64,000 bases of DNA, from the NCBI RefSeq assembly GCF_041248615.1, contig NZ_CP158426.1. One strand, 5' to 3'. The notes below the pieces were generated by a model that saw only the letters and a list, made by a program, of their open reading frames with translations, searched no databases and was not told where the DNA came from. Of this stretch, positions 41,699-41,950 are shown piece by piece (position 1 is the stretch's first letter; each line of letters opens with the position of its first letter). The stretch is from Escherichia coli (GTDB taxonomy: Bacteria > Pseudomonadota > Gammaproteobacteria > Enterobacterales > Enterobacteriaceae). Made by a program: the position numbers and the translations under genes.

Positions 41699-41760
41699 TA
41701 ACAGAAAATAAACAGGCCGTGATGTGTCGCGGTCTGTTTATCGAATTAAATGCAGATATA

Positions 41761-41791
41761 AAAAAACCAACCGTAAAGGTTGGTTTTTTTT
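41761..41791. terminator. Bidirectional terminator shared by yejO and proL
   Basis: A-run, ccaacc-gtaaa-ggttgg hairpin, T-run. Confidence 0.8.
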
Positions 41792-41799
41792 GGGATTTT

Positions 41800-41876
41800 T
41801 GGTCGGCACGAGAGGATTTGAACCTCCGACCCCCGACACCCCATGACGGTGCGCTACCAGGCTGCGCTACGTGCCG
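41800..41876 (-). tRNA. proL: tRNA-Pro (anticodon GGG)
   Basis: Reverse complement reads CGGCACGTAGCGCAGCCTGGTAGCGCACCGTCATGGGGTGTCGGGGGTCGGAGGTTCAAATCCTCTCGTGCCGACCA: 77 nt with cloverleaf arms, GGTTCAAATCC T-loop and encoded CCA. Confidence 0.95.
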
Positions 41877-41950
41877 ACTCGTGGCTGTTAATACTACCGT
41901 TTTCCACACCGATTGCAAGTAAGATATTTTGCTAACTGATTTATAATTAA

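Follow-up and report, generated by a model that had tools for sequence, protein, structure and literature searches.

A decaying autotransporter gene beside proL in Escherichia coli, probably the neighbor of an empty attachment site rather than the remnant of a tRNA-targeted insertion

In the 64,000-nucleotide stretch of Escherichia coli DNA analyzed here (the window), a truncated autotransporter gene, yejO, lies immediately downstream of the 3' end of the tRNA gene proL. With a probability of roughly 70%, we favor the reading that this is a proL attachment site (attB) standing unoccupied beside an old, Escherichia-specific gene (present at least in E. coli and E. albertii), which would have entered the locus without an integrase and has been decaying repeatedly since then. 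An earlier note on this DNA had seen in yejO the remnant of a small tRNA-targeted insertion. This idea was not supported, given that the lineage-specific DNA begins beyond the terminator of proL, that both a distal tRNA repeat and an integrase are absent, and that yejO is fixed in E. coli. It was partly right in that yejO is cargo specific to one lineage and sits in a variable flank of the tRNA gene.

Layout of the locus and the IS1 allele of yejO

The window is E. coli sequence, and its positions 37800 to 42000 are 100% identical to the chromosome of isolate NRZ14408 (accession no. NZ_LT599825.1), from which the RefSeq annotation was read. The genes follow each other in the order ccmF-dsbE-ccmH (plus strand), narP (minus), IS1, the yejO remnant (plus), proL (minus), and yejM (minus). 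According to ARAGORN, tRNA-Pro(GGG) is the single tRNA in the 64 kb, and its CCA end at position 41800 points toward the stop codon of yejO (41696 to 41698) at a distance of 101 bp, as expected from the earlier description of the two genes as facing each other.

Table 1. Features of the narP-yejM region, in window coordinates
Feature	Position	Strand	Description and basis
narP	37895..38542	-	Response regulator, 215 aa; core gene bounding the interval (ORF list, RefSeq)
Escherichia-specific segment	38580..41743		Hairpin H1 and the yejO remnant, together with IS1 and the DNA upstream of yejO (delimited by blastn between the intact E. coli locus and those of Citrobacter; boundaries converted to window coordinates)
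IS1 (IS1B-like)	38705..39472	+	insA/insB with programmed frameshift (inverted repeats, alignment to intact allele, RefSeq [IS1B])
yejO remnant	39473..41698	+	AIDA-I-type autotransporter; promoter, signal peptide, and codons 1-122, including the start codon, are missing
Hairpin H1	41708..41741	+	Terminator-like, 15-bp stem, 3' of yejO; fold -21.3 kcal/mol, z -6.57
Hairpin H2	41760..41790		Intrinsic terminator of proL, flanked by A7/T8 (terminator scan); fold -15.6 kcal/mol, z -5.63
proL, tRNA-Pro(GGG)	41800..41876	-	Intact, CCA encoded (ARAGORN)
attB region of proL-targeting elements in other strains	41800..41848	-	Core of 11-19 bp at the extreme 3' end, or 46-49 bp
yejM	41951..43711	-	LPS-modulating metalloenzyme, 586 aa; core gene on the other side of proL (ORF list, annotation)

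The yejO remnant is open for 741 amino acids, in frame from the edge of IS1 at 39473, and holds the Pfam domains AIDA (PF16168, 9e-47), Pertactin (PF03212, 5.9e-45), and Autotransporter-beta (PF03797, 2.1e-45). It has the C-terminal beta-barrel translocator and the beta-helical passenger (Pertactin/AIDA repeats) of a type Va (AIDA-I-type) autotransporter and lacks the N-terminal signal peptide and start codon of this class; RefSeq lists it as a pseudogene with a missing N terminus. Since the promoter, the signal peptide, and the first 122 codons have been deleted, the remnant is predicted to be nonfunctional.

As the intact reference we used the 863-amino-acid yejO of E. coli CB7286 (locus L005), where the equivalent segment measures ~2.9 kb. 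The IS1 copy in the window is 768 bp long, has terminal inverted repeats, and is 99 to 100% identical to IS1 copies on many replicons. It is not bordered by a 9-bp target site duplication: its flanks, GGAATTTTG and GGCGCAGCG, differ, and in the intact allele they stand 523 bp apart. Together, the missing duplication and this distance indicate that insertion of IS1 was followed by an IS1-adjacent deletion of 523 bp, covering 157 bp ahead of yejO and 366 bp at the start of its coding sequence, which would have inactivated the gene in this strain. The disruption of yejO by an insertion sequence, as had been noticed before, is therefore real. The resulting IS1-yejO junction is rare, occurring in at most 6 of 5426 complete E. 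coli genomes.

The stretch between yejO and proL had been thought to hold one shared bidirectional terminator. Two separate hairpins were found instead, H1 belonging to yejO and H2 to proL, and what survives of the claim is that H2, which begins 10 nt past the tRNA and is built as A7-stem-loop-stem-T8, could potentially act in both directions owing to its A-run and T-run flanks. H1 falls within the Escherichia-specific segment and also adjoins yejO in E. albertii and in O26.

The downstream flank of proL and the elements that use it

The search for a scar of tRNA-targeted insertion was negative at every level. In the whole 64 kb, neither the last 20 nt of proL (with up to 3 mismatches) nor its last 15 nt (with up to 2 mismatches) has a copy outside the tRNA, and between narP and proL neither the ORF list nor RefSeq contains a tyrosine integrase of the P4 or lambda type or a remnant of one, in agreement with the earlier note. 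A Smith-Waterman comparison of positions 38543 to 41799 with the proL 3' end gave nothing above chance, as judged by shuffles. Because IS1 has removed part of the narP-yejO spacer in the window, the test was moved to the intact 319-bp spacer of CB7286, where the best score against the proL 3' 50 nt was 7, compared with a shuffle mean of 8.07, and was equaled by 479 of 500 shuffles. The direct repeat of the proL 3' 15 to 20 nt that the earlier note had proposed to look for in the region from 38.5 to 41.9 kb is thus absent, even in degenerate form, and absent from the intact allele as well.

We then relied on H2 as a marker of the tRNA's own flank. A YejM-anchored scan, with one genome per species, returned 80 Enterobacteriaceae loci with 10-kb flanks; E. 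coli, E. fergusonii, and E. marmotae were not among them, and in Salmonella narP lies beyond the 10-kb flank. By a strict pattern, H2 follows proL in at least 38 of 64 Enterobacteriaceae loci, with stems that covary (CCAACC/GGTTGG and CCAGCC/GGCTGG), and it is missing from loci where P4-like integrase islands sit. We regard H2 as the ancestral, family-wide downstream flank of proL. In the window, it is still in place beside proL, and the lineage-specific DNA starts only 40 to 56 bp past the tRNA. The tRNA being intact and still followed by H2, the attachment site for tyrosine-integrase elements is empty in this strain.

Eight of the scanned loci (L006, L015, L045, L048, L050, L060, L062, and L073), from Escherichia, Citrobacter, Phytobacter, Kosakonia, and Klebsiella, carry an island-like motif resembling CCCCTTAAGAACCCGCA in place of H2 within the first 60 nt after proL. 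A P4-like integrase was detected in only two of them, and the others may be fossil islands or carriers of unrecognized integrases. Integrases were searched with phmmer, taking four E. coli integrases as queries and every ORF in the 80 loci as targets, a search that finds close relatives only and that divergent integrases could escape, so loci called integrase-free here are provisionally so.

Elements that do use proL are found in other genomes, and they sit elsewhere than yejO. With positions 41720 to 41920 as a probe, the terminator-proL junction was intact in 4938 of 5425 E. coli genomes, and in the remaining ~9% the match ends at 41798, two bases past the end of the tRNA; matches to other E. 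coli genomes break at 41798/41800, 41818, and 41845. In every case read, the element occupies the gap between proL on one side and H2 plus yejO on the other, which places yejO outside the attachment site. The integrase lies 195 to 218 bp from the tRNA, and in the Escherichia cases a tRNA repeat of 11 to 49 bp stands beside yejO. The repeats in loci L001 and L002 measure 19, 46, and 49 bp. In E. coli 50EVA (L001), the scar next to yejO is made up of H1, H2, and 19 bp repeated from the tRNA 3' end. The inserted element is mobilizable and 19 kb long, and its P4-type integrase directly adjoins another partial tRNA copy, of 49 bp, past which a further element follows (tandem accretion). E. coli NRZ99027-2 has a lambdoid prophage and remnants at proL, with a 46-bp partial tRNA copy by yejO. 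In E. coli O26 RM8426, the element is 8.7 kb long, its integrase is 218 bp from the tRNA, its genes include capsid, small terminase, RepA, Icd-like, and Ash-family genes, and its scar by yejO reads H2 and then an 11-bp core. The type strain of E. albertii (L020) holds an 8.25-kb integrase island between proL and yejO, with an 11-bp repeat core and a scar in which CTCTCGTGCCA is followed by H2 and then by yejO. Citrobacter, Enterobacter, Kluyvera, and a cryptic Escherichia likewise have integrases of this type ~200 bp past proL. This fits with the published locations of Salmonella SPI-12, which lies beside proL (PMC7143636), and of prophages in STEC O121, whose sites include proL (PMC8767318).

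Several of these loci hold features of their own. The 50EVA element carries "ABC-three component system" genes (L001, 33331 to 35917), a candidate defense system, along with a relaxase and two more tyrosine recombinases. In Salmonella enterica subsp. diarizonae (L019, 11911 to 17558), a 5.6-kb islet past proL has no integrase; it encodes a TonB-dependent receptor, a DUF4198 protein, and a BNR sialidase-like protein, and it is bounded by a degenerate copy, ~40 nt long, of the tRNA 3' end. As this islet illustrates, tRNA repeats can outlive the integrase. A 44.6-kb circle filed as a plasmid of E. coli Z1323HEC0010 (L086, NZ_CP148393.1) encodes tail fibers, ParA, and a site-specific integrase, and its positions 4001 to 4092 form a 92-bp stretch with 84% identity to window positions 41758 to 41851, which cover H2 and the 3' half of proL. 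This stretch is probably the attP of a circular phage or phage-plasmid that targets proL.

A simple argument, namely, that an H2 proximal to proL excludes any integration, was considered and had to be weakened, since some phage-type elements bring a copy of H2 within their attachment region. One such case is Citrobacter R56, where a 3.3-kb integrase islet has as its boundary a 96-bp copy of H2 and the 3' half of the tRNA, and another is the 44.6-kb phage-like circle described above (H147). Judged from these sequences, H2 beside proL would, on its own, still be compatible with an ancient integration of the phage type.

Origin and decay of yejO

Comparison of the proL-narP interval across the family, as the earlier note had suggested, revealed that its content differs among relatives rather than being the same in all of them. 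The frame is stable: yejM is 78 to 99% identical across the 80 Enterobacteriaceae loci, and in nearly all loci with a tRNA found, proL lies ~75 bp downstream of yejM. The exception is Lelliottia nimipressuralis CCUG 25894 (L021, 11758 to 15834), where the tRNA-Pro is ~4 kb downstream and an insertion appears to have occurred between yejM and proL. A locus titled Chryseobacterium sp. 18061 (L065) has a YejM 79% identical to that of E. coli and no tRNA detected by ARAGORN on the locus; the title is almost certainly a mislabel or reflects a contaminating enterobacterial genome. Most other genera lack the nap-ccm-narP cluster, and there proL is followed by variable DNA and then by eco-mqo-yojI-alkB-ada-apbE. 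The distance from the tRNA to the conserved backbone, whether this one or narP-ccm, ranges from ~0.2 to more than 9 kb, and what lies in between is often found in a single genome.

Among the non-Escherichia loci scanned, only the Citrobacter-like ones have narP no more than 10 kb from proL, and their NarP shares 88 to 92% amino acid identity with that of the window. In two of them (L009 and L011, one titled an uncultured Raoultella metagenome-assembled genome), the proL-narP gap is 208 bp and holds no gene. Aligned by blastn with the intact E. coli locus, the Citrobacter loci are homologous through yejM, proL, and H2, lose homology 40 to 56 bp past the tRNA, and regain it 37 bp upstream of the narP ATG. 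The Escherichia-specific piece of the intact locus is therefore ~2.9 kb long, comprises yejO, H1, and ~280 bp of upstream DNA, and has its boundary between H1 and H2. The other Citrobacter intervals measure 0.2 to 3.5 kb and hold unrelated, integrase-free cargo between H2 and the narP promoter, such as a bacteriocin with Cloacin and Colicin-pore domains, a DUF1493 protein, or an RcnB-like protein with a DUF6056 fragment and an N-terminal IS4 fragment. The bacteriocin, of 472 amino acids, is encoded on the chromosome of Citrobacter amalonaticus S646 (L017, 12557 to 14279), in the gap from the proL terminator to narP, which contains no mobility gene; an adjoining ORF for a 99-amino-acid membrane protein possibly encodes the immunity protein. 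A tblastn search (E < 1e-5) found yejO-like sequence within 10 kb of proL in none of the 78 non-Escherichia loci, including the six Citrobacter-like loci with narP in view.

Within Escherichia, yejO is old and stable in position. All but two of 5426 E. coli genomes (5424) carry its 5' end, no plasmid does, and the order narP-yejO-proL-yejM is the same in diverged alleles and in E. albertii. In a second E. albertii genome (L087), this order is free of any island, as in the window, and the flanks are 99.3% identical to those of the type strain. Between these two E. albertii genomes, yejO itself is only 89.7% identical despite the near identity of the flanks, which points to replacement of the allele or to diversifying recombination at this adhesin gene. 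The best 120 yejO homologues are at least 76% identical, except for two internally deleted alleles that score lower, and every entry among them that names its source is from Escherichia. An origin from a plasmid or phage was considered and rejected, as the plasmid matches of 95% or more are mislabeled, megabase-sized records, and true plasmid relatives are at most 43% identical. The GC3 of yejO is 0.465, against 0.56 to 0.67 in the neighboring genes; the deviation in overall GC is mild, the remnant being at the 19th percentile of the window and the dip lying mostly in the passenger domain. This composition would fit a foreign origin, for which it is not decisive by itself, and we take the gene to be probably foreign but old.

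In E. coli, yejO occurs intact (863 amino acids), interrupted by IS5 as in the K-12 pseudogene (PMC11005336), with an internal deletion, with frameshifts, and, here, with IS1 plus a deletion. In a large class of strains, represented by S12 (L003) and AVS0662 (L004), both at locus positions 5078 to 6003, the first 923 bp of yejO are joined to a point ~30 bp before the stop codon. Most genomes without the yejO 3' end owe this to the shared internal deletion, which corresponds to window breakpoint 41669. Presence or absence of the gene is thus not polymorphic in E. coli, only its state of decay, and this decay has been repeated and independent.

Could yejO nevertheless be the last cargo of a small integrase-mediated island at the proL 3' end, one that has meanwhile shed its integrase and the distal tRNA repeat? 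Such a history would suit the heavy use of proL as an attachment site across Enterobacteriaceae (PMC7143636; PMC8767318), the absence of yejO from the Citrobacter site, and its low GC3. Tandem accretion, as in 50EVA, moves older islands off the tRNA, and the elements with their own copy of H2 make a proximal H2 compatible with an old phage-type integration. However, scars do persist elsewhere, as the tRNA copies of the diarizonae and R56 islets attest, whereas the narP side of intact yejO lacks even a degenerate repeat, the window has none, and no integrase fragment is left. Moreover, the boundary of the Escherichia-specific DNA lies outside the tRNA, and no presence/absence polymorphism is seen over 5426 genomes, which makes this origin quite unlikely in our view. 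A different possibility is that yejO is ancestral at this site in the group formed by Escherichia, Citrobacter, and Salmonella and was deleted or replaced in Citrobacter. The fixation of the gene in E. coli, its identical position in E. albertii, its visible proneness to deletion, and the turnover of the Citrobacter interval speak for this. It is nonetheless an unlikely one, given that none of the 78 non-Escherichia loci has yejO-like sequence near proL, that close homologues (among the best 120) are restricted to Escherichia, and that GC3 is well below that of the neighbors. Finally, the adjacency of yejO and proL might be coincidence, with no hotspot involved, as intergenic gaps often hold tRNA genes and accessory genes alike; many E. 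coli autotransporter genes are indeed scattered over the chromosome, and the plasmid search also returned the related YpjA/EhaD adhesin. But the stretch just after proL is variable family-wide, and what precedes the backbone is often unique to one genome, so we regard mere coincidence as very improbable.

The reading we prefer, an empty attB beside an old gene acquired without an integrase, would imply that an ancestor of Escherichia received yejO between the terminator of proL and the promoter of narP, by an integrase-independent route, for instance through homologous recombination in the core genes on either side. The comparisons yielded neither a donor nor a flanking repeat or recombination tract that would mark this entry. 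Gain of yejO in Escherichia, as opposed to loss elsewhere, is the likely polarity of the event by parsimony over the sampled loci. It is tempting to go one step further and to speculate that the spacer between the proL terminator and the promoter of the next core gene (narP or eco) is a second, integrase-independent cargo slot beside attB, in which single-gene cassettes are swapped by flanking homologous recombination while the boundaries stay fixed; the cassette would be an autotransporter in Escherichia and, in Citrobacter, a colicin-like bacteriocin, a DUF1493 gene, or others. We put this forward as a tentative idea that is rather less likely than likely to be correct. If it were true, two mechanistically distinct hotspots would lie side by side on one tRNA flank.

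Significance and comparison with known systems

All parts of this locus have already been annotated or published, namely, the proL attachment site, the decaying yejO autotransporter, and the IS1-adjacent deletion. The wider point is that an accessory gene adjoining the 3' end of a tRNA is not in itself evidence of tRNA-targeted integration. What should be asked instead is whether the tRNA still has its ancestral downstream flank, here a terminator hairpin, and whether a tRNA-derived repeat stands on the far side. The loci compared form a natural series at one tRNA, from the empty site through sites occupied by single or tandem elements to a fossil islet with a repeat and to integrase-free cargo. 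The allele in the window also adds one more independent route of yejO inactivation, supporting the view that this adhesin is dispensable or counterselected in many E. coli lineages.

Among known systems, the closest is the yejO::IS5 allele of K-12, which concerns the same gene in the same narP-yejO-proL-yejM locus and likewise involves inactivation by an insertion sequence near the 5' end. It differs in that the insertion there is IS5, while here it is IS1 combined with a 523-bp deletion of the promoter and the first 122 codons. The elements known at proL (SPI-12, STEC prophages, and islands or satellites with P4-type integrases) resemble the yejO segment in lying at the same tRNA and on the same side, downstream of its 3' end, and in that their cargo can include surface or virulence factors. 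However, they have an integrase ~200 bp from the tRNA, replace the terminator flank, and are marked by a tRNA repeat of 11 to 49 bp (up to 96 bp), none of which applies to the yejO segment. A third comparison is with hotspots of horizontal transfer that lack mobile elements (Oliveira et al. 2017, PMC5635113), whose content has been proposed to turn over through homologous recombination in the core genes on either side. As in these hotspots, the interval between the core genes yejM/proL and narP (or eco) holds small cargo that differs from species to species and often includes no mobility gene. In contrast to them, the yejO slot varies within E. coli only in its state of decay, and variability within the species comes from the neighboring attB.
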